Part shown: piece after piece, positions 2,856-14,370 of the stretch
How positions within the stretch are numbered: the first letter of the stretch is position 1
Layout of the letters: each line of letters starts with the position of its first letter
Virus record (IMG/VR): IMGVR_UViG_2718217868_000005
Coordinates: 1 to 22,453 of that record
Length of the DNA stretch: 22,453 nucleotides
Origin: a virus
Lineage: Duplodnaviria; Heunggongvirae; Uroviricota; Caudoviricetes
Reading direction: 5' to 3' (one strand)
Made by a program: the position numbers and the translations under genes
The notes under the pieces: generated by a model
The model's input: the letters and a program-made list of their open reading frames with translations, nothing else
Database searches by the model: none
Told to the model about the DNA's origin: nothing

Positions 2856-3074
2856 TCAAAGAGAGAGCGCCACCTGTCCTGATTTCATTGGATGCGGCTG
2901 AACCGGATTTGACTCTTTTGGCGTTGCAATCGAACGAACAAAAGTTTCATGGGTAACAAAAGTATGGCTGCAGTTAATGTTCTGGCACTGGTTGTAACGC
3001 TCTTTGGTCAATGAAGATACCTGAAAACTGCTGCGAGTATGGGCGGCACTTCCACACAGTGGGCAAATCATCAT
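2856..3074 (-). CDS. ogr: Ogr/Delta-type zinc-finger late-gene activator (about 72 aa)
   Basis: CPLCG...CQNINCSHTF is a C2C2 zinc finger resembling P2 Ogr. Start chosen at the internal ATG (MMICPLCG); the 11-codon upstream extension is unlikely. Sits just downstream of gene D as in P2. Confidence 0.8.
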   Translation of the reverse strand: MMICPLCGSAAHTRSSFQVSSLTKERYNQCQNINCSHTFVTHETFVRSIATPKESNPVQPHPMKSGQVALSL

Positions 3075-3164
3075 TTTTCGAGTTCTCCCCATTTTTGCTA
3101 AATTCATAATAATGATACCGCATTATTCCATTTTGCAAACTTAAAAGTTCTCCATTGCGAAGAA

Positions 3165-4265: not shown

Positions 4266-4747
4266 GACAGCAGCCCTCCCACCGTTTTACTGATATCGCT
4301 TAAGGCAGACGTTGCCGTGTCCTGCAGATTATTCAGTTGCGCACTGAGATCACCGAACATATCGGACAGGGATTCATCCACCCGTTTGAGCGACAGGGTG
4401 AACTCAATCCGGCGCGGCATACCGTCGCGGAAAAACTCCGTTTTAGTCTGATTCAGTCCCTCAATCACATACATGCCGTAAATCGTGCCGCTGCCTTCAA
4501 TCAGGGGCCATGCTTTCCCCTGTTCTGCCATCTGCTCCAGTACCAGCAACGACAGCCTGCCGCCTGTTATCTCCGGCATAAGAACACCAGAAAGCGTCAG
4601 CATGTCGTTGTCCGGTCCCAGAAACTGCGTGGACGGACGTCGGTTGACCCGGCTGTTTGCCGCATGTCGCCAGCTGCGTTGATACTGCAGTTCCTGATAC
4701 GGCACAGTGCGCAGCATAAACACGTACAATCCCAGCACCATCATCAT
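4262..4747 (-). CDS. U: Tail protein U (161 aa)
   Basis: Position between T and D, with ATGA overlaps at both ends. Sequence resembles P2 gpU from memory. Confidence 0.85.
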   Translation of the reverse strand: MMMVLGLYVFMLRTVPYQELQYQRSWRHAANSRVNRRPSTQFLGPDNDMLTLSGVLMPEITGGRLSLLVLEQMAEQGKAWPLIEGSGTIYGMYVIEGLNQTKTEFFRDGMPRRIEFTLSLKRVDESLSDMFGDLSAQLNNLQDTATSALSDISKTVGGLLS

Positions 4748-7465
4748 GCGTCGTATCCCCCCTGATCGCTGTAGTTACTCCTGGCTTTTGCCTTCAGCCT
4801 GCGTTCACGTTCATCAAGCTGGCGTGCCACCTCCCGCGCAATATCCTGCGCACTTTGTCCTGGCTGCGTCTGGATGATGATCTGCGTCGGTGCCTCAATC
4901 CGTTGAGCGGGCGGCACAGTGGCTGCACGACTCACCATCGCTTCGCCGCCTTTCGCGGGAAGTGCCAAAGGATGTAACGGCGGAAGCTCTGCAGGCGCGG
5001 CAGCAACGCCCATCATTCCGGCAACAACGGCAGCCAGTGCAGCTGTATTTCTCCGACTGGTCACGTTTGCCGGACCGTTGACAATTTCAGGCCCGTTTTC
5101 ACCGACAATGCCGAACTGCCCGCGCGGGATATAGCCGCCGCTGTCATACATCCCCGCAAAGCCATATCCCCATGACGGAAAACCACCCGATGGCATCATC
5201 ACTTTACCGTCTGCATTCACCGTCGCAGGTTGCTGACGCGTCACGCTTTCCGGCAGTTTCGCCTTTGCGGCCTCTTTACTGACAATGCCGAGCTTCTCCA
5301 GCAACCAGGAAACGCCGGATTTCAGGGAGTCCAGCGGATGCATGACCATATTCAGCCCTTCCGCCAGTGCCTCCCCGAATCGCCGCCCCATTGCCGCTGC
5401 GCTCTGCAGTTCGGCAGAGGTCGACTTAACGGGCGTCAGCAGCTCAGTAAACCAGCCCCACAGCGCCTGCACTTTGTCGCCAATCCACTGGAACACGGGC
5501 TTAAGCGGTTCGAACGCTGCACTGATGGGACCTGCCGCCGCTTTGAATCCTTCCACCACGCCACCGAGAAATGCGGTGATGGGTTGCCAGTATTTCCAGA
5601 CAACCAGGGCCACGCCCGCCAGTGCAGTAACCACAAGACCTATCGGACTGAGCAGAGCACCTAACGGAAGATAACGTTTTGATACCCAACACAGAGAATC
5701 CCAGACGGATCACTGCCAGCGGCCCCAGCACTGCAGCCAGCGCCACCGCTAAGGTGCCGAGGCCGACGGTAACCGCAGCCACAACAGCCGATGCTTTCAT
5801 CAGTGTGCCTGTCAGTTCCGGGTTAGCTTCCACCCAGCGACGCAACGCCCCCGTGACGCTTTTCACCGTGTACAGAATATCCATCAGCGGCTGGCGCAGC
5901 GTTTCGCCCAGGCTGCTGAAGGTGTTCTGCGCTCCGGTTTTGACCAGCAACCACTGCGCAGAAAGTGAATCCTTGTTAATGTCGGATTCTTTCTGCATGG
6001 AGCCGAGCGCATCATTGCCCGCTGTCAGTTTTAACTGACGCTGCAGTTCCGGCAGGTTGTTTGCCAGTTTCGCCGCGTCATCGCCAAACTCTTTACCAAA
6101 CAACATAGTCATGGCAGACAGGCGCTTGTCCTGCGGCAGCGCGTTTACCTTCTCCAGCACGCGCTGGATGGTTCCCATCGCATCCTTCGTCATCTGCTTT
6201 TCAATCACTTCAGGATTGAGTTTCAGCAGATTCATCCCTTCAAAGAAACTCTTGCTTTGCATGGTGGCAATGGACAATTCACGCACCATCGCGTTTGCTG
6301 CACTGGCTGCAACCTCTGGCGCAGCGCCCAGTGTCAGGAAGGTGGAACCCAGCGCCGCCGCTTTACGATAATCCAGACGGTCAGCCACACCGCCCAGACG
6401 TTGCATCACATCAATGATGTCTGCCCCTTTCGACATGGCGTTATCATCCAGATAGTTCAGCGCATCACCGAGCTGTTCAATATTGCGGGTGGGGATTTTG
6501 TAGAGCTGGGCGATTTTCCCCAGACTTTCTGACAGTTCATCCGCTGGCAGCTCAAAGGCTGTTGCCGCCTTTGCTGCCGTACTGGCGAAGGCCAGCAGGT
6601 CACGTTTCTGATCTTCCCAGCTGTCGTCAGGGTTTGCGACGTTCATGCGCGCACCACCTTCAACCAGTGCAGCGAAGTCCACCGCACCGTTTTCCATCGG
6701 CAACTGTTCGCTGGCAGCCTTGATGGCATCCTGCATTTCATAAAAACGTGCAGTGCGGTTGCCATTATCGTCACGCAGACCATTGACCTGCTTTGCCACA
6801 CCTTTCATGGCATCTTCCATGCTGGTATAGCTTTTTACTGCCGCCATCACTGGCGCACCCATTGCCAGCCCTGCAGCCGTGGTGGTGGCTCCGGCACCTG
6901 CAATACGATCACGCACCTCCAGCGAACGGGCATAACTGGCACGCGCTGCATTCATCCTGCGCTGAGCTTCCCCCAGTCGCTTCAGCCGCGCCTCCTGTTT
7001 CGAAAGTTCCTGGTTATAACGTGATGTTTCACGGGCTAAACGGGCAGTTGCTCCCGCATCGTCTTTCGCAGAAATTCCCGCCCGGTACAGTTCAGCACGC
7101 ACAAGCGCCGTCTGCTGCTGCAGCTTTTTCTGGCGTTCTTCCAGGCGCTGAACAGCCAGCCGTTGACGGCCCAGAGCAACAACCTGACGTTGCGAAGGCG
7201 GCCCCATCGCTCCCAGTTCCTGACTGAGCAAATTTGCACGCTGGCGGGCATAGTTCAGCCTGTCGCTTAATTTCTGATTTTCTGCCTGCAGCTTTCGGAA
7301 GCTGTCCAGACTGCTCCCGGCCTGATCAAGCTGCTTTATTGCATCGCGGGATTTTTTGACAGCAGCAGCCAGTTCTCTTGAACTGGCCTGCGCAGATCGA
7401 AATGGGCGGGTGAGCTTGTCAACCGCATTAAGAATGACCTGCAGACGCAGGTTGTTATCACTCAT
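4744..7465 (-). pseudogene. T: Tail tape measure gene T, split by a 1-nt frameshift into 654-aa and 296-aa ORFs
   Basis: ORFs 5501-7465 and 4744-5634 are in different frames and overlap by 134 nt. Upstream part is coiled-coil (Q/R/A/L-rich); downstream part has hydrophobic and Gly-rich segments, typical of tape measure proteins. The frame switch maps to about 5665-5700, next to a TTTT run at 5677-5680. Confidence 0.8.
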
Positions 7466-7491
7466 CTTTGGCCCCGCTTCTCTGAATCGCT

Positions 7492-7944
7492 TTATACCGC
7501 CATTCCAGCACTTCGGTCACTGGCGCTGAATGTCAGCATTTCAGTGCCCAGACTGGCAGGGTCATCAGTGGCAGCCAGGCCGACCAGGTAGGCTTTGCCC
7601 GTATCAGCAAACTTCGGGCTGACTTCCATAGAGGTGAATAATTTCTGGCCTTTTTTCACCAGTTCCACCAGGGACTCCGTTGGCTCAACGTCGGCATACA
7701 GCGCCATCTTGCCTGCCAGCGGACCTTCCGTGATTTCTTCAGCAAACAGCGCCGTCACCTTACCGTAGCGGTTAAAGGTGCTGTCCGGCAGATAAGACTT
7801 GATGTGCTCAAGGTTAATCAGCGCGGTATACACCGCCGGGTTGTAGCTGGCTGCCATCTGTTCCAGCCATTCACGCTGGATTTCGCGTCCGTCGGTGGTG
7901 GCACCTTCCACCCCGATGCGAAAACGCTTTGCTTTCACTGTCAT
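7492..7944 (-). pseudogene. O: Capsid scaffold gene O, truncated (N-terminal about 140 aa homologous, then a short unrelated tail)
   Basis: FRIGVEGATTDGREI...INLEH...SMEVSPKFADTGKAYLVGLAATDDPASLGTE matches the N-terminal half of P2 gpO (about 284 aa) from memory. The ORF stops 26 nt before the T start. SD ACGGAG upstream of the ATG at 7944. Confidence 0.8.
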
Positions 7945-8022
7945 GAGCCGTGCTCCGTTAGAAAAAACTTACTGGAGCCTTATGGTTGCGGTGATGGGGG
8001 CAGTGAAACAATGCGCGGTATT

Positions 8023-8040
8023 TGTACCGACAACCACACA
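8023..8040. promoter_or_regulatory. TGT-N12-ACA element, candidate Ogr-dependent late promoter site in the O-P divergent region
   Basis: TGTACCGACAACCACACA sits in the 142-bp O/P intergenic region. P2 late promoters carry a TGT-N12-ACA element near -55 (established knowledge). Which strand it serves is not resolved. Confidence 0.4.
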
Positions 8041-8086
8041 AACCGCAGGCGGGGAAAGCCTTCATTCAAGGTTGTAGGTTTGTGCC

Positions 8087-9853
8087 ATGAACACCACACT
8101 GACACCCGCAGATCTCGATCCCCGTCGGCAGGCCATGCTGCTGTACTTTCAGGGATACCGCGTAGCCCGCATTGCTGAAATGCTGGGCGAGAAAGTTGCA
8201 ACCGTTCACAGCTGGAAAAAACGCGACAAGTGGGGTGACTATGGGCCGCTGGATCAGATGCAGCTCACCACCGCCGCACGCTACTGCCAGCTCATCATGA
8301 AGGAGCACAAAGAAGGGAAAGATTTCAAAGAGATTGACCTGCTGGCGCGCCAGTCGGAGCGCCAAGCGCGGATCGGCAAGTTTAACAATGGCGGCAACGA
8401 AGCTGACTTAAACCCTAACGTCGCCAACCGCAACAAAGGCCCGCGCCGTCAGCCGGAAAAGAATGTCTTCACCGATGAACAGATTGAGAAGCTGGAAGAA
8501 ATCTTCCATTCCTCCATGTTCAACTACCAGCGCCACTGGTGGGAAGTCGGAAAAACCAACCGCATCCGCAACCTGCTGAAGTCACGCCAGATCGGCGCGA
8601 CCTTTTACTTTGCCCGTGAAGCCCTGATTGACGCCCTGCTTACCGGACGTAACCAGATTTTCCTTTCCGCCAGTAAGGCACAGGCCCACGTCTTTAAGCA
8701 GTACATCATCGACTTCGCCAAAGAAGTGGATGTGGAACTGAAAGGCGATCCGATGGTGCTTCCTAACGGGGCCACGCTTTACTTCCTCGGCACCAATGCC
8801 CGCACGGCTCAAAGTTATCACGGCAACCTGTATCTGGATGAATATTTCTGGATACCGAAATTTCAGGAGCTACGCAAAGTGGCTTCCGGTATGGCTATTC
8901 ACAAGAAATGGCGGCAGACCTATTTTTCCACACCATCCAGCCTGACCCACAGTGCTTATCCGTTCTGGTCCGGTGCGCTGTTCAACCGTGGGCGCAACAA
9001 AGCCGATAAGGTGGACATCGACCTGTCCCACAGCAATCTGGCCCCCGGCCTGCTGTGCGCAGACGGGCAATACCGCCAGATAGTCACCGTGGAAGATGCG
9101 GTGCGCGGCGGCTGTAACCTGTTCGACCTTGACCAGTTGCGCATGGAGTACAGCCCGGACGAATACCAGAACCTGCTGATGTGCGAGTTTGTGGACGATC
9201 TCGCGTCCGTGTTCCCGCTCAGCGAGCTGCAGGCGTGCATGGTAGACAGCTGGGAAGTCTGGACTGACTTTCATGCACTGGCCCTGCGCCCGTTTGGCTG
9301 GCGCGAAGTATGGATCGGTTATGACCCGGCGAAAGGTACGCAGAATGGCGACAGCGCCGGATGCGTGGTGGTGGCTCCGCCAACCGTGCCGGGCGGCAAG
9401 TTCCGCATTCTTGAGCGTCACCAGTGGCGCGGAATGGACTTTCGCGCCCAGGCTGACGCCATCAAAAAACTGACCGAACAGTACAACGTGACCTACATCG
9501 GCATCGACTCGACAGGTGTCGGCCACGGGGTTTACGAGAACGTGAAAGCGTTTTTTCCAGCCGTCCGGGAGTTTGTCTACAACCCCAACGTTAAAAACGC
9601 CCTGGTACTCAAGGCCTACGACATTATCAGTCACCGTCGTCTGGAGTTTGACGCCGGACACACCGACATAGCGCAGTCATTTATGGCAATCCGTCGCGCC
9701 ACCACCGCCAGCGGCAACCGCCCAACCTATGAAGCCAGCCGCAGCGAAGAAGCCAGCCATGCCGATCTGGCCTGGGCAACAATGCACGCACTGTTTAACG
9801 AACCGCTGCAGGGCGAGTCCGCCAATACCAGCAATATTGTGGAGATTTTTTGA
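8087..9853 (+). CDS. P: Terminase large (ATPase) subunit, P2 gpP family, 588 aa
   Basis: Size and N-terminus match P2 gpP from memory. Divergent from O and upstream of Q as in P2. Confidence 0.9.
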   Translation: MNTTLTPADLDPRRQAMLLYFQGYRVARIAEMLGEKVATVHSWKKRDKWGDYGPLDQMQLTTAARYCQLIMKEHKEGKDFKEIDLLARQSERQARIGKFNNGGNEADLNPNVANRNKGPRRQPEKNVFTDEQIEKLEEIFHSSMFNYQRHWWEVGKTNRIRNLLKSRQIGATFYFAREALIDALLTGRNQIFLSASKAQAHVFKQYIIDFAKEVDVELKGDPMVLPNGATLYFLGTNARTAQSYHGNLYLDEYFWIPKFQELRKVASGMAIHKKWRQTYFSTPSSLTHSAYPFWSGALFNRGRNKADKVDIDLSHSNLAPGLLCADGQYRQIVTVEDAVRGGCNLFDLDQLRMEYSPDEYQNLLMCEFVDDLASVFPLSELQACMVDSWEVWTDFHALALRPFGWREVWIGYDPAKGTQNGDSAGCVVVAPPTVPGGKFRILERHQWRGMDFRAQADAIKKLTEQYNVTYIGIDSTGVGHGVYENVKAFFPAVREFVYNPNVKNALVLKAYDIISHRRLEFDAGHTDIAQSFMAIRRATTASGNRPTYEASRSEEASHADLAWATMHALFNEPLQGESANTSNIVEIF

Positions 9854-10902
9854 TGGGAAAGAGTAAGAAAAACCGCGCTGCGGCGACGAACCAGATCCAG
9901 CATAAAAACCAAACTTCAGCCGAAGCATTCAGCTTCGGTGATCCCGTTCCTGTTCTGGACCGCCGCGAACTGCTGGACTATGTGGAATGCGTACAGACAG
10001 ATCGCTGGTATGAGCCACCAGTAAGCTTTGACGGACTGGCGCGCACCTTCCGCGCTGCCGTGCATCACAGTTCACCAATTGCGGTGAAATGCAACATTCT
10101 GACCAGTACCTACATCCCTCACCCGCTGCTCAGCCAGCAGGCTTTTTCACGTTTTGTGCAGGACTATCTGGTATTTGGTAACGCCTACCTGGAGAAACGC
10201 ACGAACCGCTTCGGTGAAGTTATCGCCTTTGATCCTGCTCTGGCAAAATACACCCGACGCGGGTTAGACCTAGATACCTACTGGTTTGTGCAATACGGTA
10301 TGACAACCCAGCCGTATCAGTTCACGAAAGGCAGCATTTTTCATCTGATGGAACCGGATATTAATCAGGAGATCTACGGCCTGCCCGGCTATCTTTCTGC
10401 CATTCCGTCCACCCTGCTCAATGAGTCCGCCACGCTGTTCCGTCGAAAGTATTACATTAACGGCAGTCATGCTGGCTTCATCATGTACATGACCGACGCT
10501 GCGCAGAACCAGGAGGATGTGAACAACCTCCGCAACGCGATGAAAAGCGCCAAAGGTCCAGGCAACTTCCGCAACCTGTTTATGTACTCGCCTAACGGCA
10601 AAAAGGACGGGCTTCAGATCATCCCGTTGTCAGAAGTCGCAGCGAAAGATGAATTTCTGAACATCAAGAACGTGAGTCGTGATGACATGATGGCCGCGCA
10701 TCGTGTTCCGCCACAGATGATGGGGATTATGCCGAATAATGTTGGGGGTTTTGGGGATGTGGAAAAAGCGAGCCGTGTCTTCGTCCGCAATGAACTGATG
10801 CCGCTGCAAAAGCGGCTGCAGGAGCTGAATTACTGGCTAGGTAAAGAGGTGATCCGCTTCGAGCCCTACACGCTGGGAATAGACACAAACAACGATAGCT
10901 AA
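9853..10902 (+). CDS. Q: Portal protein, P2 gpQ family (about 349 aa)
   Basis: ATG at 9853 overlaps the P stop (TGATG); GGAG at 9841-9844. The ORF track's TTG at 9850 is a less likely start. Sequence resembles P2 gpQ from memory. Confidence 0.9.
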   Translation: MGKSKKNRAAATNQIQHKNQTSAEAFSFGDPVPVLDRRELLDYVECVQTDRWYEPPVSFDGLARTFRAAVHHSSPIAVKCNILTSTYIPHPLLSQQAFSRFVQDYLVFGNAYLEKRTNRFGEVIAFDPALAKYTRRGLDLDTYWFVQYGMTTQPYQFTKGSIFHLMEPDINQEIYGLPGYLSAIPSTLLNESATLFRRKYYINGSHAGFIMYMTDAAQNQEDVNNLRNAMKSAKGPGNFRNLFMYSPNGKKDGLQIIPLSEVAAKDEFLNIKNVSRDDMMAAHRVPPQMMGIMPNNVGGFGDVEKASRVFVRNELMPLQKRLQELNYWLGKEVIRFEPYTLGIDTNNDS

Positions 10903-10909
10903 ATTTAAA

Positions 10910-10940
10910 AGCAGCGCCTCTGCTTGTTAAAGGCGCTGCT
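10910..10940. terminator. Bidirectional hairpin between the convergent Q and 223-aa ORF
   Basis: Perfect 9-bp stem AGCAGCGCC / GGCGCTGCT with a 13-nt loop. On the minus strand it is followed by TTTAAATTT. Confidence 0.5.
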
Positions 10941-10953
10941 AAGCCTCAAGAAA

Positions 10954-11625
10954 TTATCGCTCTTCCCCAAGAATTCCGGTCTTAATCAGCTGATTCCAGA
11001 AGTTTTTCATTTTCTGTCCTGTCTGCTGATTAACAAATAGAGATGATCTGGCACCGTGCGGATATCCCATCAACTGCCCGCGCATATCTTCCCAATTTTC
11101 ACAATAAACTGCATGCCGCCAGTTAGGAACCTCGCTTTCAAGCATCAATCCAATTGCTGCTTTTGCTGGAATGGTGCCATCCTCTTCCATATCTTCCGAA
11201 ATAAGCCAATGGCATTTTATTAACAACGGGACGGCGTTGTCATTATAAAGCACAACGTCATCAATCTTCTCAATAGAGAAATGGGCATCCGTGTGCTTTA
11301 GACGTTTTATACCAGCTATAAATTCATCAACCCCATGACCATAAGGACAGGTAAGAATGCCGTTCCTGAAATAGACCGTGTGGTCCAGGTATTTAAAGCT
11401 AGGAGTATTATTGGGAGTCATAGGCGCCCAAATAGCTTTATCTCTTTCCAGCAAAAAAGGATGCCATGCTGGATACCCATCCACTACTGGCCCACATTCT
11501 TCAACAATTTCTTTGAGCTTCGCCCTAACTTTCGAACGCATCTCCTGATTTGAACCTTGTGGAACTAGATATCTGTAAGCATTTTCGAAATTCGATGCTG
11601 CTGCTTCTTCCGCTCTGAAAGCCAT
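10954..11625 (-). CDS. Hypothetical cargo protein (223 aa), function unknown
   Basis: Intact ORF with SD-like GGGGTG about 7 nt upstream of the ATG at 11625. Lower GC than the flanking phage core. Lies between portal Q and the cos-like site, where P2 has essentially no coding sequence. No motif I recognise. Confidence 0.6.
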   Translation of the reverse strand: MAFRAEEAAASNFENAYRYLVPQGSNQEMRSKVRAKLKEIVEECGPVVDGYPAWHPFLLERDKAIWAPMTPNNTPSFKYLDHTVYFRNGILTCPYGHGVDEFIAGIKRLKHTDAHFSIEKIDDVVLYNDNAVPLLIKCHWLISEDMEEDGTIPAKAAIGLMLESEVPNWRHAVYCENWEDMRGQLMGYPHGARSSLFVNQQTGQKMKNFWNQLIKTGILGEER

Positions 11626-11643
11626 AAAACACCCCGCAATATA

Positions 11644-11665
11644 GATACATTACGCACAATGTATC
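11644..11665. promoter_or_regulatory. Perfect palindrome GATACATT-N6-AATGTATC overlapping the putative promoter of the 223-aa ORF
   Basis: 8-bp arms with a 6-bp spacer, 19-40 bp upstream of the ATG. Candidate minus-strand -35 TTGCAA (11680-11685), 17-nt spacer, -10 TACATT (11657-11662). Confidence 0.45.
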
Positions 11666-11845
11666 AATTTCATGCACAAGTTGCAATGTTTGTGTTTTAC
11701 CGCTTAAGCCAATTCCCTCAATAAACAACCTCAACAACTTCCTGTGGGGCGGTTTTTTTGCTGCTGCACCTCACCATTTCAATTTGAAGCCGCTAGCGGG
11801 CCGTAGGCTGTGCCGAGTTTTTGCTATTTCACCTCGTTGCGCGCG

Positions 11846-11864
11846 CTCGTATCCCCGCCACGCC
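11846..11864 (-). other. Candidate cos site (cohesive-end sequence)
   Basis: Minus strand reads GGCGTGGCGGGGATACGAG. The first 13 nt match my recollection of the 19-nt cohesive ends of 186 (GGCGTGGCGGGGAAAGCAT) and P2 (GGCGAGGCGGGGAAAGCAC). Orientation is correct: it reads from cos toward Q. Confidence 0.4.
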
Positions 11865-12060
11865 TGCCCACTTTATGTAGTGGTTTTCATGCACCTGCAT
11901 GATCTACGCAAAAGCCCGCCAGTTCTGGCGGACCTTAGCAAAAACGATCCGCAAACGATCATGCGATCTCATGCGGCATAGTCATGCACTTACGGGGGAA
12001 GTGAAATCCCGTAACCGAATGACCGCTTGAAAAACAAAACTCTCGTTTTTATAAAGCACA

Positions 12061-12086
12061 AAGTCCGCTTCGAGCGAAGCGGACTT
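12061..12086. terminator. Hairpin downstream of the KAP NTPase gene
   Basis: AAGTCCGCTTCG / CGAAGCGGACTT, a perfect 11-12 bp stem, about 63 nt after the stop at 12150, with T/A-rich flanks. Confidence 0.5.
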
Positions 12087-12149
12087 TAATAATTTTACTG
12101 ACCATGTCTAGTACTTCTAATAATATTACCTATGTTAATCAACAAAATG

Positions 12150-14042
12150 TTAATCAGTTCCCTCAGTAAATAATTTGATTGCATTAGTTAGTGCATAGTC
12201 AATAAAAAACTTTACATGAAAAACCTGAAAGGAGTTATTGGCTGCGTTTTGAGTGAAATCTACAGCTATCTCTTTTAGGCTAATCAACCAGTTGTATTCT
12301 TCGGTCAGTCTGGTTCTGGCATCCCTATCAGAATAACGATCCCTCAAGCTAAATGCCAGTTTCCTCATGATGATTGGGTCAAGTTTCCTATAGCTTTCAA
12401 TGAAAACTTCAGGAGAAACCAAGTGTAAAAAAGGCACGTTATGAAGATTTAGCTGCCTATTATTAGAATGACACAATTCAGATACAAACGATAAATTCCC
12501 TCTTTGCAACTCATCGCTGAACTTCAATGCAAACTCCGGAATTGATTCATCAAACCGTTTCTTCTGCGCTATCTTAATATGCTCAATAATGAGTTTGAAT
12601 TCATCGCTATCCCTGTCAAGAAAACCAAAGCCACGCCATGCCATTAACTCATTATAATGTCTTTGCGCATACTCCTGATGTATATCTTCAGGTCCTAATC
12701 CATTGTAATAAATATCTATATGATGTTTTGTCTCATTTATAATGTCATCAACAGCATCTGTGGTTAAACCTTCTTTCGCCAATGCCAGCAAAATACTCGC
12801 GGTCATCAGGAGTTCACCTAAGGAAGTGATCTTACCTGAAAATAGATTATCCTTGGCAATGGCGTACTGTTCATTAAGCATAGTTTCATTAAGTTCTCGA
12901 TAGTTCCACAAATACTCCCATGCTTGGGCATCGGTGCTTCTAAAAAATCGCGTAATATCCAGCTGAGCGAGAAGATCATGCGTTACCTTTCCATCACAGA
13001 TTAGCTCTCTCCAGTACGCACCATCCAGCAACGTCTCGGTTAATACAGGTGATGAATATTTCTCGACGATCATGTCATACTTAGTTTTGGTACGCCCTTT
13101 ATCTAAAAACATACTATAATTTACATTGCCGATTGAATTGAAATCCTCGTAGTTAAGGTTCCCTCCCCGATACTCCATCGAGAAAATTAATAACTGCTGG
13201 AAAAATACTTTCATAAAATCGTCGTTGCTGACATATTTATCTCCCAAAAGGGAAATGATGCGTTGTACATCAAGAAAGAACTGCCTCAAATGTCTTAGAT
13301 TATTATATTTCGCCGACACATAGAGGTGTTCTATGGTCTGCATATCTTCTTTAAATATATTAGCTACGTGTAAACTACTAATTACGCCCAAGAAAACATT
13401 ACAAGCACTATGTAAATCTGACGTTACTTCAAATGTTTTACCTACAAGCTTTTCTTTTGTTCTTATGTATTCACTGCTAGATTTCTCATCATCATTATTT
13501 ATTCGCTTTTCTCTGTTGATTATTTCTTCTTCATTGGCAACCAGGATCGCTTTGTATCCGTTTACTTCTACAAAGTGATTTATATATCCAAATAAGATTG
13601 GTAAATCTATACCAGCTCTCTCGATATCATCAAAGACCAGCACAAAACCATCTGGTTCTCTGCTAAAGTCGCTAAGATTAATGGTGGGGACACTGGCATT
13701 GACATCTACGTCAGGCTTATTATCGCCATTGAAATCGATCTTGAAAGTAGCCTTAAGCGTATTTTTTAGTACATTTGCACCAAAGATAAGGGCTTTGTTT
13801 GATAGAATAGGATGAAGTTGACGATAGAACTCATCTTCAATCTGCTCAATAGAGTTGACGCCATACAAACTCACTTTAAGAAATTTGAACTCTGAATGCT
13901 TTTGCTTATATTCTTCAAGAACTCGTTCAATGAACCAAGTTTTACCTGATCCCCAAGCACCTTTAAGCATAATGGCGTATTGAGGTTCAGTTTTAAGGCT
14001 AAGGTAATATTCTATATAGTCTTTGATGTACGTATTGTGCAT
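12150..14042 (-). CDS. KAP-family P-loop NTPase (about 630 aa), candidate anti-phage defence protein
   Basis: Walker A GAWGSGKT and Walker B-like FVLVFDDIER (the hhhhDD-x-ER form typical of KAP NTPases). Strongly AT-rich. Start placed at the ATG at 14042 (MHNTYIKDY); the track's TTG at 14093 has no SD. Candidate minus-strand -10 TATAAT at 14152-14157. Confidence 0.7.
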   Translation of the reverse strand: MHNTYIKDYIEYYLSLKTEPQYAIMLKGAWGSGKTWFIERVLEEYKQKHSEFKFLKVSLYGVNSIEQIEDEFYRQLHPILSNKALIFGANVLKNTLKATFKIDFNGDNKPDVDVNASVPTINLSDFSREPDGFVLVFDDIERAGIDLPILFGYINHFVEVNGYKAILVANEEEIINREKRINNDDEKSSSEYIRTKEKLVGKTFEVTSDLHSACNVFLGVISSLHVANIFKEDMQTIEHLYVSAKYNNLRHLRQFFLDVQRIISLLGDKYVSNDDFMKVFFQQLLIFSMEYRGGNLNYEDFNSIGNVNYSMFLDKGRTKTKYDMIVEKYSSPVLTETLLDGAYWRELICDGKVTHDLLAQLDITRFFRSTDAQAWEYLWNYRELNETMLNEQYAIAKDNLFSGKITSLGELLMTASILLALAKEGLTTDAVDDIINETKHHIDIYYNGLGPEDIHQEYAQRHYNELMAWRGFGFLDRDSDEFKLIIEHIKIAQKKRFDESIPEFALKFSDELQRGNLSFVSELCHSNNRQLNLHNVPFLHLVSPEVFIESYRKLDPIIMRKLAFSLRDRYSDRDARTRLTEEYNWLISLKEIAVDFTQNAANNSFQVFHVKFFIDYALTNAIKLFTEGTD

Positions 14043-14370
14043 TTTTAGTCCATTTTGATAAAATACATAAACATAGATGGTAAGTAGAGCCAAAGGCCAA
14101 CTATGGAAAATTCAATAGGTAGTGTACATTGTAAGGTTATTATTGGTAAATATTATAGGAATACCCATAATCTTACAAAATTCAGATTATCCGTTGCAAA
14201 TTAGTCTGCCATTCGTTAATTGACGAAAGATAGCAGAAGAAACGTTCGCTTCTGGCACAAAGTGGACGATCATTTATCAAAATGCCCCCCCACCTTACGC
14301 CTTACGCCTTATTTCACTCATTGCCCAAACTAGCCCCCATTCGAATGAATCCTCTTGGGGGCAACGTTTC

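Follow-up and report, generated by a model that had tools for sequence, protein, structure and literature searches.

A 223-amino-acid cargo gene between the portal gene and cos of a P2-like prophage has a conserved, portable operator array in its promoter

Phage morons, such as bor and lom of phage λ, are autonomous units of promoter, gene and terminator that lie between core genes. Negative autoregulation through palindromes that overlap the promoter is typical of type II antitoxins; NikR joins an N-terminal DNA-binding module to a C-terminal His/Cys ligand-binding α/β domain and has operator half-sites about two turns apart (GTATGA-N16-TCATAC); and BrxR and CapW are WYL-family transcription regulators of defence islands. 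In P2-like phages, cargo genes such as old and tin of P2 occupy the hotspot between gpA and gpQ that was catalogued by Rousset et al., 2022 (PMC9122126). This hotspot is a productive source of new immune systems, and about one-fifth of P2 elements have only unknown genes there according to a 2026 NAR survey of P2/P4 hotspots (PMC13586616). Here we examine an open reading frame (ORF) for a 223-amino-acid (aa) protein, ORF223, in a 22,453-nucleotide (nt) stretch of the Caudoviricetes record IMGVR_UViG_2718217868_000005 (positions 1 to 22,453; "the window" denotes this whole stretch), where it lies between the portal gene Q and cos. ORF223 resembles the described hotspot cargo in its locus, in a GC content below that of the backbone and in being swapped between near-identical prophages, and differs from it in occupying a separate sub-slot on the Q side and in encoding a small single protein with no known domain and no PADLOC match. 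Like a moron, it has its own σ70-like promoter and terminator, a deviant composition and a place between conserved genes, running against the flanking late gene; unlike the moron definition, it includes a dedicated operator array that is conserved family-wide and co-varies with the gene. The category of hotspot cargo is known; within it, ORF223 stands for an uncharacterised family with an unusual, portable and co-varying operator array. We read the locus, with a probability of roughly one-half, as a self-contained, autoregulated cargo cassette with a conflict function.

The anatomy of this cassette is the firmest part of the reading: ORF223 is very likely the sole gene of a self-contained accessory unit of about 0.9 kb, in which a σ70 promoter with two operator sites and a ribosome-binding site precedes it and a terminator follows (Table 1). 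The marks of morons and hotspot cargo, namely a promoter and a terminator of its own (both predicted from the sequence), deviant composition and presence/absence polymorphism, are all found here. GC content is 42-45% (about 43%) in ORF223 versus 51-61% in the genes for terminase (P) and portal (Q; 9850-10902, PF04860), and ORF223 is convergent with Q, so that its position, orientation and lower GC are as an earlier reading of the letters alone (the sequence-only reading) had described them. The product has a mass of 25.5 kDa and an isoelectric point (pI) of 5.8. Its N-terminus, MAFRAEE, agrees with the near-invariant N-terminus in the family alignment, which fixes the start codon, and orthologues carry GAGGT at the Shine-Dalgarno position.

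Table 1. Coordinates of the ORF223 cassette, its control elements and its slot. Positions are those of the window, except in the last row, which gives positions in three other loci.
Feature	Position	Strand	Remarks
Coding sequence of the 223-aa protein	10954..11625	minus	ATG at 11625, stop at 10954; WP_000885505.1, annotated 'hypothetical protein'
Terminator-like hairpin	10910..10940	minus	12 pairs and a T-rich tail; 14 nt past the stop, between ORF223 and the convergent Q
Shine-Dalgarno-like GGGGTG	11630..11635	minus	4 nt 5' of the ATG; read from the sequence
Promoter P1 (predicted)	11658..11686	minus	-35 TTGCAA (11686-11681), 17-bp spacer, -10 TACATT (11663-11658); conserved across Enterobacterales orthologues
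Alternative promoter P2 (predicted)	11638..11667	minus	TTGATA-N18-TATATT (-10 at 11643-11638); 10/12 matches; palindrome fills the spacer
Perfect palindrome GATACATT-ACGCAC-AATGTATC	11644..11665		8/8 inverted repeat; arms 11644-11651 and 11658-11665
Proximal operator site (putative) TTGTGCGTAA	11650..11659	minus	consensus TTAYGCRTAA; centre about 30 nt 5' of the ATG
Distal operator site (putative) TTGTGCATGA	11670..11679	minus	centre exactly 20 bp upstream of the proximal site
Variable cassette	10848..11836		in sister 186/Fels-2-like prophages with other cargo, homology lost at 10814-10847 (inside the 3' end of Q) and regained at 11837-11839
Conserved cos block, cassette boundary	~11837..11990		~150 bp; only part of the Q-KAP interval kept in other Peduoviridae
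Cargos of the Q-cos sub-slot	L098 2174-4050; L099 2976-4130; L156 737-2434		SIR2_2 + ParA-like, RES, AIPR (Fels-2)

The evidence for control of this gene begins with its promoter. As the sequence-only reading had noticed, a perfect palindrome lies over the promoter region, where it overlaps two σ70-like promoters. Its search for further copies, now carried out, returned none in the window even at 3 mismatches. Taken simply as an inverted repeat of 8 bp, the palindrome is unexceptional, with about 5 distinct loci of this kind in the window versus 5.45 ± 2.6 in Markov simulations. It becomes significant because its centre (11654/11655) coincides exactly with that of the proximal site TTGTGCGTAA, a site that recurs in the promoters of nearly all homologues; the palindrome is TTGTGCGTAA plus extended arms. 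These outer arms are not conserved in the Raoultella, Enterobacter and Klebsiella orthologues, deviate from the family flanking consensus ATTTTAYGCRTAAAAT, and are broken by a natural single-nucleotide polymorphism, T11646C, in NC101 and in the metagenomic contig L018, while the coding sequence is identical among the four alleles compared. The 22-bp perfect palindrome is an allele-specific elaboration of a smaller conserved site. The proposal that it serves as the operator of a dimeric DNA-binding protein therefore needs amending in part: there does seem to be a genuine operator of the kind bound by a symmetric protein, and its unit is the inner 10 bp, TTGTGCGTAA, together with TTGTGCATGA 20 bp upstream.

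We then counted the site TTAYGCRTAA in 70 non-redundant upstream regions of the family, allowing at most 2 mismatches and requiring the GC core, and found 111 sites in 65 of the 70 regions, compared to 6.4 (maximum 14) in shuffled sequences. Spacing between adjacent sites is exactly 20 bp in 37 of 46 cases and 40 bp in six more; site centres lie near -70, -50 and -30 from the ATG, and nearly every member has two or three copies in its promoter. When 1.13 Mb of flanking DNA was divided into 250-bp bins, the bin just upstream of the gene contained 132 sites and the others about 8 each, and every one of the 43 site pairs with 20-bp spacing lies upstream of a family gene. The site is constant across alpha-, beta- and gammaproteobacterial and some other hosts, and plasmid homologues that are only 35% identical and begin with MFRANE retain TTAYGCRTAA at 20 bp. 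The exact operator-pair pattern also occurs in 35 viral contigs, five times directly upstream of a family member, which is a strong enrichment for so rare a family; the other 30 matches look like chance matches or hairpins.

The sites are interwoven with the predicted promoter elements. Orthologous upstream regions align over about 70 nt at only 54-65% protein identity, and an alignment of eight of them has invariant columns on the TT of the P1 -35 and on A2 and T6 of its -10; the alternative promoter P2 is poorly conserved among orthologues. The distal operator falls inside the P1 spacer and the proximal operator begins within the -10. Since the sites interleave with the promoter hexamers they are mostly untranscribed, and because the fold of the leader is ordinary (z-score +0.57 compared to shuffles) and no Rfam match is better than E = 0.39, the palindromic element likely acts at the DNA level.

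Autoregulation is, in our judgement, the probable explanation of this array, with the sites bound by the gene's own product rather than by a separate regulator. It is the best reading because the cis-element and the protein co-vary in a manner that host range does not explain. In a divergent subfamily of 312 aa (metagenome contigs L143-L155), which begins with MEFRxPxAA and has an extra C-terminal domain of about 90 aa without a Pfam match, the operator is TTACGTRA, with 23 sites in 12 of 12 loci versus 0.55 in shuffles. This element keeps the outer half-sites of TTAYGCRTAA and has a centre 2 bp shorter; spacing is 17-18 bp, the gap between sites is still 10 bp, and TTACGTRA occurs only once in the 70 main-family promoters. 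No gene except the family member co-travels with the sites. The product would sit as a symmetric oligomer on one helix face at these sites and occlude RNA polymerase, and such negative autoregulation would keep the gene at a low, fixed level of expression during lysogeny.

The protein itself belongs to a family without a name. A search of 5.8 billion clusters returned 203 homologues, all unnamed, and 1.84 billion representatives, searched exhaustively with a profile, yielded 291 homologue clusters at 50% identity. Nearly all members are single-domain proteins of about 220 aa; a few reach 310-325 aa through an added C-terminal region, which matched no Pfam family. The remote-homology check that the sequence-only reading had proposed yielded no recognised family and no relative of solved structure: the 223-aa protein has no match in Pfam, PADLOC, PHROG or NCBIfam (in PADLOC-DB v2, no family at E ≤ 0.1), and a sequence profile against the PDB returned noise only. 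Together these searches show a rare, widely transferred family of about 220 aa that lacks a detectable solved structural relative. In an alignment of 143 sequences, G45, W54-H55-P56 and G187 are invariant, and Y51-P52, D81-H82, P94, Y127, W178, P189, S195 and F197 are at least 90% conserved; the main clade strongly conserves the N-terminus MAFRA(D/E)EAA and the motif GARSSLFVNQ. The predicted structure is confident and compact, without a flexible linker; an acidic segment of two helices makes up its first 45 or so residues, and an α/β domain with conserved His/His/Cys comes next. The conserved cluster H55 / D81-H82 (with or without C93) in this domain may be an active site or a ligand- or metal-binding site, to judge by its conservation, and no fold match was obtained that would let the cluster be named.

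ORF223 is swappable cargo and not a packaging or morphogenesis core gene of the P2 family. Core-gene status fails because tblastn found no match to the protein in 50,697 phage records, because conservation is limited to the cos block, and because other genes take its place in the slot. Among 5,426 complete E. coli genomes, only 24 have the gene. Two prophages with the same backbone and the same KAP-family NTPase gene across cos carry other genes between Q and cos, a SIR2_2 protein with a ParA-like ATPase in strain SFE8 and a RES-domain protein (384 aa) in strain NRZ14408, and Fels-2 holds a 565-aa AIPR protein there. The Q-cos interval is therefore a cargo slot of its own inside the gpA-gpQ hotspot, and its content swaps independently of that of the A-cos sub-slot, which shows that the hotspot consists of two halves flanking cos. 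The sequence-only reading had thus been right to propose an independent cargo gene in the hotspot; its point of reference, that the P2 portal gene ends near cos, is not apt for this phage group, in which the Q-cos interval is a recurrent cargo slot. The region from the promoter to the cos block (11742-11836, about 95 bp) is 86-88% identical to Yersinia phage vB_YpM_MLG42 and has no match in the E. coli sister prophages; the gene-specific part is therefore roughly 10848-11741, and on its cos side the cassette has a mosaic boundary. The cohesive ends of cos lie at about 11845-11865 because linear phage records end there (SEN8 at ~11865, Midge at ~11856, together mapping to ~11856-11865), which places ORF223 between Q and cos, at the very end of the chromosome in the virion. 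We take the cohesive end to be GGCGTGGCGGGGATACGAG on the minus strand (~11863-11845), its exact 19 nt being assigned by analogy with P2 and 186. In the literature searched, no main text mentions WP_000885505; its one occurrence is in a supplementary table of Rousset et al., 2022, where it is entered as 'hypothetical' alongside the KAP NTPase among the contents of the gpA-gpQ hotspot, and we saw no sign in that study that it had been assayed (PMC9122126).

Close homologues occupy the Q-cos slot of P2-like prophages in five other genera (Raoultella, Enterobacter, Klebsiella, Pantoea and Serratia). More distant ones lie between the lysis and terminase genes of a lambdoid Klebsiella prophage, in an Acinetobacter integrative island, in a Marinobacter module adjoining an S-type pyocin, and just 3' of IncFII repA on about 200 PLSDB plasmids, of which 158 are conjugative. 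All-against-all clustering of the ORFs within ±5 kb at 96 loci found no conserved partner gene; the largest group of recurring neighbours belongs to a single element shared by about 12 beta- and gammaproteobacterial loci. The immediate neighbours include Abi_2, ResIII helicases, CAP12-type TIR, HEPN/Toprim, SMEK, DUF4238 and DUF4145 proteins, and also among them are a long pAgo, a NACHT NTPase, Shango SngC, BrxH, PD-T4-5 and PIN_12. In two deleted prophage remnants, that of the window and one in Serratia, the family gene is intact. We see in this the signature of a defence-island or conflict gene, because of the defence-type neighbours, the SIR2, RES and AIPR slot-mates and the survival of an intact gene in the remnants. 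ORF223 may accordingly be a one-protein conflict function that would exclude, or respond abortively to, other phages or mobile elements. From this genomic context, a defence-type function of one protein, exclusion or abortive infection, held low by auto-repression, is a tentative assignment, about as easily wrong as right and somewhat less secure than autoregulation. The most ambitious version, a new DNA-binding fold with a portable promoter-operator array that would combine autoregulation and an anti-phage or anti-plasmid sensor/effector in one polypeptide as a new one-protein conflict module, is a good deal more doubtful.

Several observations weigh against this picture. No DNA-binding domain is recognisable in the 223-aa protein by profile or fold, and its composition is acidic, the median pI being 5.7 across the family and 4.9 for the first 45 residues. 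The co-variation of operator and subfamily comes from a single divergent metagenome clade and might reflect a host factor that diverged alongside. No curated model ties the family to defence, nor does PADLOC return a match. Many homologues reside on conjugative plasmids beside repA with psiA/psiB not far away, a setting that fits establishment or anti-defence equally well. Finally, the intact ML35 prophage and the deleted one have the same allele of the ORF; the deletion is therefore possibly recent and says little about selection.

If the protein does bind its own promoter, it could be primarily a transcription factor, a ligand- or metal-sensing or defence-island regulator of other genes or of invading DNA with no effector activity. 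The operator array with its presumed autoregulation would suit this role, as would the conserved His/Asp/His(/Cys) cluster, which could take a ligand or metal, and the loci in which the next gene, on the same strand and 0-100 bp away, is of defence type (PIN_12 in Pantoea, pAgo, CAP12-type TIR, NACHT and DUF4238). Against it, members are mostly solo with no recurring partner, a terminator stands directly 3' of ORF223 in the window, and the paired sites occur nowhere else in the 1.13 Mb of flanks or in the window. Nor is there a sequence or fold match to NikR, ribbon-helix-helix or WYL regulators. The comparison with these regulators is instructive all the same. With NikR the family shares palindromic elements about 20 bp apart over the promoter, presumed autoregulation, and a two-helix N-terminal segment followed by an α/β domain; it differs in lacking sequence or fold similarity and in that each site is itself a 10-bp palindrome, present in up to three copies; the likeness is one of analogy and not of membership. 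The arrangement of operators expected of ribbon-helix-helix or NikR-like regulators is found here, with 10-bp palindromes at 20 bp (18 bp in the 312-aa subfamily) over the -35/-10, which shows that the 223-aa protein may work like such a regulator but does not make it a member of the class. A ribbon-helix-helix N-terminus finds no support in profile searches: when a profile built from 71 N-termini was compared with PDB sequences and Pfam, the only matches were compositional ones to designed repeat proteins. Like BrxR and CapW, the family adjoins a wide variety of unrelated defence systems, in some cases as the gene immediately before them in the same orientation, and probably binds palindromes in its own promoter; unlike them, it has no winged helix-turn-helix or WYL domain, is usually solo with its own terminator, and shares no operator with its neighbouring genes in the 1.13 Mb of flanks. 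We consider a purely regulatory role unlikely.

Less likely again is an establishment or anti-defence gene of a mobile element, expressed early from near the cos end, or from plasmid regions close to the leading region, and neutralising host immunity. The acidity of the protein would fit, as would a cassette no more than about 10 bp from the cos end of virion DNA and the roughly 200 plasmids with a homologue beside repA and psiA/psiB a few kb off. However, the slot-mates in P2-like phages are defence-type effectors (SIR2, RES, AIPR), chromosomal copies lie among defence genes, the gene is retained in prophage remnants that can no longer infect, and a tightly auto-repressed σ70 cassette fits expression during lysogeny.

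Binding of the palindrome by a host regulator, for the E. coli allele AcrR or EnvR, is improbable. The AcrR operator of the acrAB promoter, TACATACATT-TGTG-AATGTATGTA, spans 24 bp with two 10-bp inverted repeats and a 4-bp spacer (PMC10597343), and the arms TAGATACATT and AATGTATCAA at the ORF223 promoter equal its arms at 17 of 20 positions; the lack of a recognisable DNA-binding domain in the 223-aa protein would also favour an outside binder. But the spacer here is 6 bp and not 4, and the AcrR-like outer arms are absent from the Raoultella, Enterobacter, Klebsiella, Pantoea and Serratia orthologues and broken in NC101, so the 24-bp operator of AcrR or EnvR is not what is found. The conserved part is the inner TTAYGCRTAA, which spans many phyla and switches with the protein subfamily, and no further paired sites occur in flanking DNA. 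The likeness to the AcrR operator is probably coincidental. Among other host sites, those of LexA, Fur, CRP/FNR, NsrR, NarL, CIRCE/HrcA, sigma-54 and DnaA were compared by eye, and none fits; a relaxed DnaA box, TTWTNCACA, fits only the minority of sites with C at position 8.

We give equally little credence to a fused or solitary addiction module of toxin-antitoxin type, in which an N-terminal autoregulatory part would restrain a toxic C-terminal domain and stabilise the element. Promoter palindromes with negative autoregulation recall type II antitoxins, plasmid copies lie beside replication and partition genes, and HicB or YoeB/Phd modules adjoin the gene in some loci. The protein is, however, a single polypeptide of compact, confidently predicted structure with no flexible linker, and it has no similarity to any toxin or antitoxin family in Pfam, PADLOC, PHROGs or NCBIfam; the boundary between addiction and abortive infection is blurred in any case. 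The two-gene organisation of type II systems is likewise missing: ORF223 is a single gene with no conserved neighbour, and its autoregulation is itself presumed.

Partnership with the KAP NTPase (PDC-S49) in a two-gene system straddling cos, which the sequence-only reading had entertained and which the presence of that NTPase beside every E. coli copy of ORF223 so far would suit, is scarcely credible and already largely refuted: obligate co-occurrence fails, with the KAP gene in 46 complete E. coli genomes versus 24 for ORF223; prophages with the same KAP gene hold the SIR2 and ParA-like or RES genes in the slot; the Raoultella, Enterobacter, Klebsiella, Pantoea and Serratia homologues stand opposite a DUF4145 protein (the A-side cargo in Raoultella), a methylase, GAPS4, an Eco57I-like protein or other cargo and no KAP, with one identical ORF223-type allele in Enterobacter facing three different A-side cargos, GAPS4 included; and the two genes have separate promoters and terminators with cos between them.

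The independence of the two halves matters for delimiting hotspot 'systems'. When gpA-gpQ is treated as one locus, surveys merge two independent cargos, and ORF223 and the KAP NTPase are entered as one locus by Rousset et al. (PMC9122126). As a probably autoregulated cargo cassette, ORF223 is a clean and cheap candidate for study, being a small single protein with a confident predicted structure, no detectable solved relative and a built-in, easily testable regulatory circuit, and its family spreads through P2-like and lambdoid prophages, about 200 plasmids and defence islands. The co-variation of operator and protein would make the family a natural setting in which to study palindrome reading and re-tuning by a new DNA-binding fold, and a compact auto-repressed cassette could serve as a portable expression module.

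The KAP-family P-loop NTPase (647 aa, 12150-14093, minus strand) matches the PADLOC candidate PDC-S49 (E = 2.8e-161) and phrog_4740; GC content in its gene is 34-38%, and a bidirectional hairpin of its own lies at 12060-12087. An intact 186/Fels-2-like prophage in E. coli ML35, with CI, CII, Fil, DinI, gpA and Dam, shares an identical sequence with the window only from position 7518 on; in the ML35 genome, ORF223 is entered as WP_000885505.1. The prophage in the window is a deletion remnant that has lost its capsid, lysis, baseplate, fibre, sheath and tube genes. A gpO shortened to 150 aa (7492-7944) abuts the tape-measure gene (4744-7465, split as two overlapping ORFs), beyond which come gpU, gpD and ogr (2856-3107) and then the host genes ybjL (935-2620), ybjM and grxA (1-258). 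P, Q, ORF223, cos, KAP, DinI, A and the early region are intact. Within the conserved cos block, a direct repeat of AAACGATC occurs twice 11 bp apart (11942-11960) and an 8-bp inverted repeat, GCATGATC/GATCATGC, spans 11897-11964; these repeats may be terminase-recognition elements.

The contig L018, a 4.5-kb piece of a metagenome-assembled genome labelled 'Bacillota bacterium', is almost certainly E. coli contamination or mis-binning because it is 99.4% identical to this E. coli prophage region, and odd taxon labels of other metagenome-assembled loci carry the same caution. The Serratia homologue lies in a decayed prophage remnant at the same ybjL locus and adjoins hicB. In the Q-cos slot of a Pantoea sp. 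JK prophage (L104, 5001-6814), the stop codon of the family member overlaps the start of a 381-aa PIN_12 gene, and the two genes look like an operon; an E. coli locus tabulated as 'KAP_NTPase + PIN_12 + hypothetical' (Rousset et al., 2022; PMC9122126) may have the same arrangement. In Marinobacter and metagenomes (L003-L007, ~4700-8900), a five-gene block of DUF6036, an ORF of 111-125 aa, the family member, an S-type pyocin (528 aa) and DUF7957 was seen in five different flanking contexts and looks like a mobile module. IncFII-type plasmids carry a 282-aa homologue with an internal insertion (WP_032072916.1; 5884-6732 in both L158 and L160), which keeps its place directly 3' of repA in many plasmids of Klebsiella, Enterobacter, Citrobacter and E. 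coli and has the same pair of operator sites at a 20-bp distance. Beyond it come three small genes of unknown kind and one for a DUF2913 protein, and psiA/psiB lie at a distance of a few kb.

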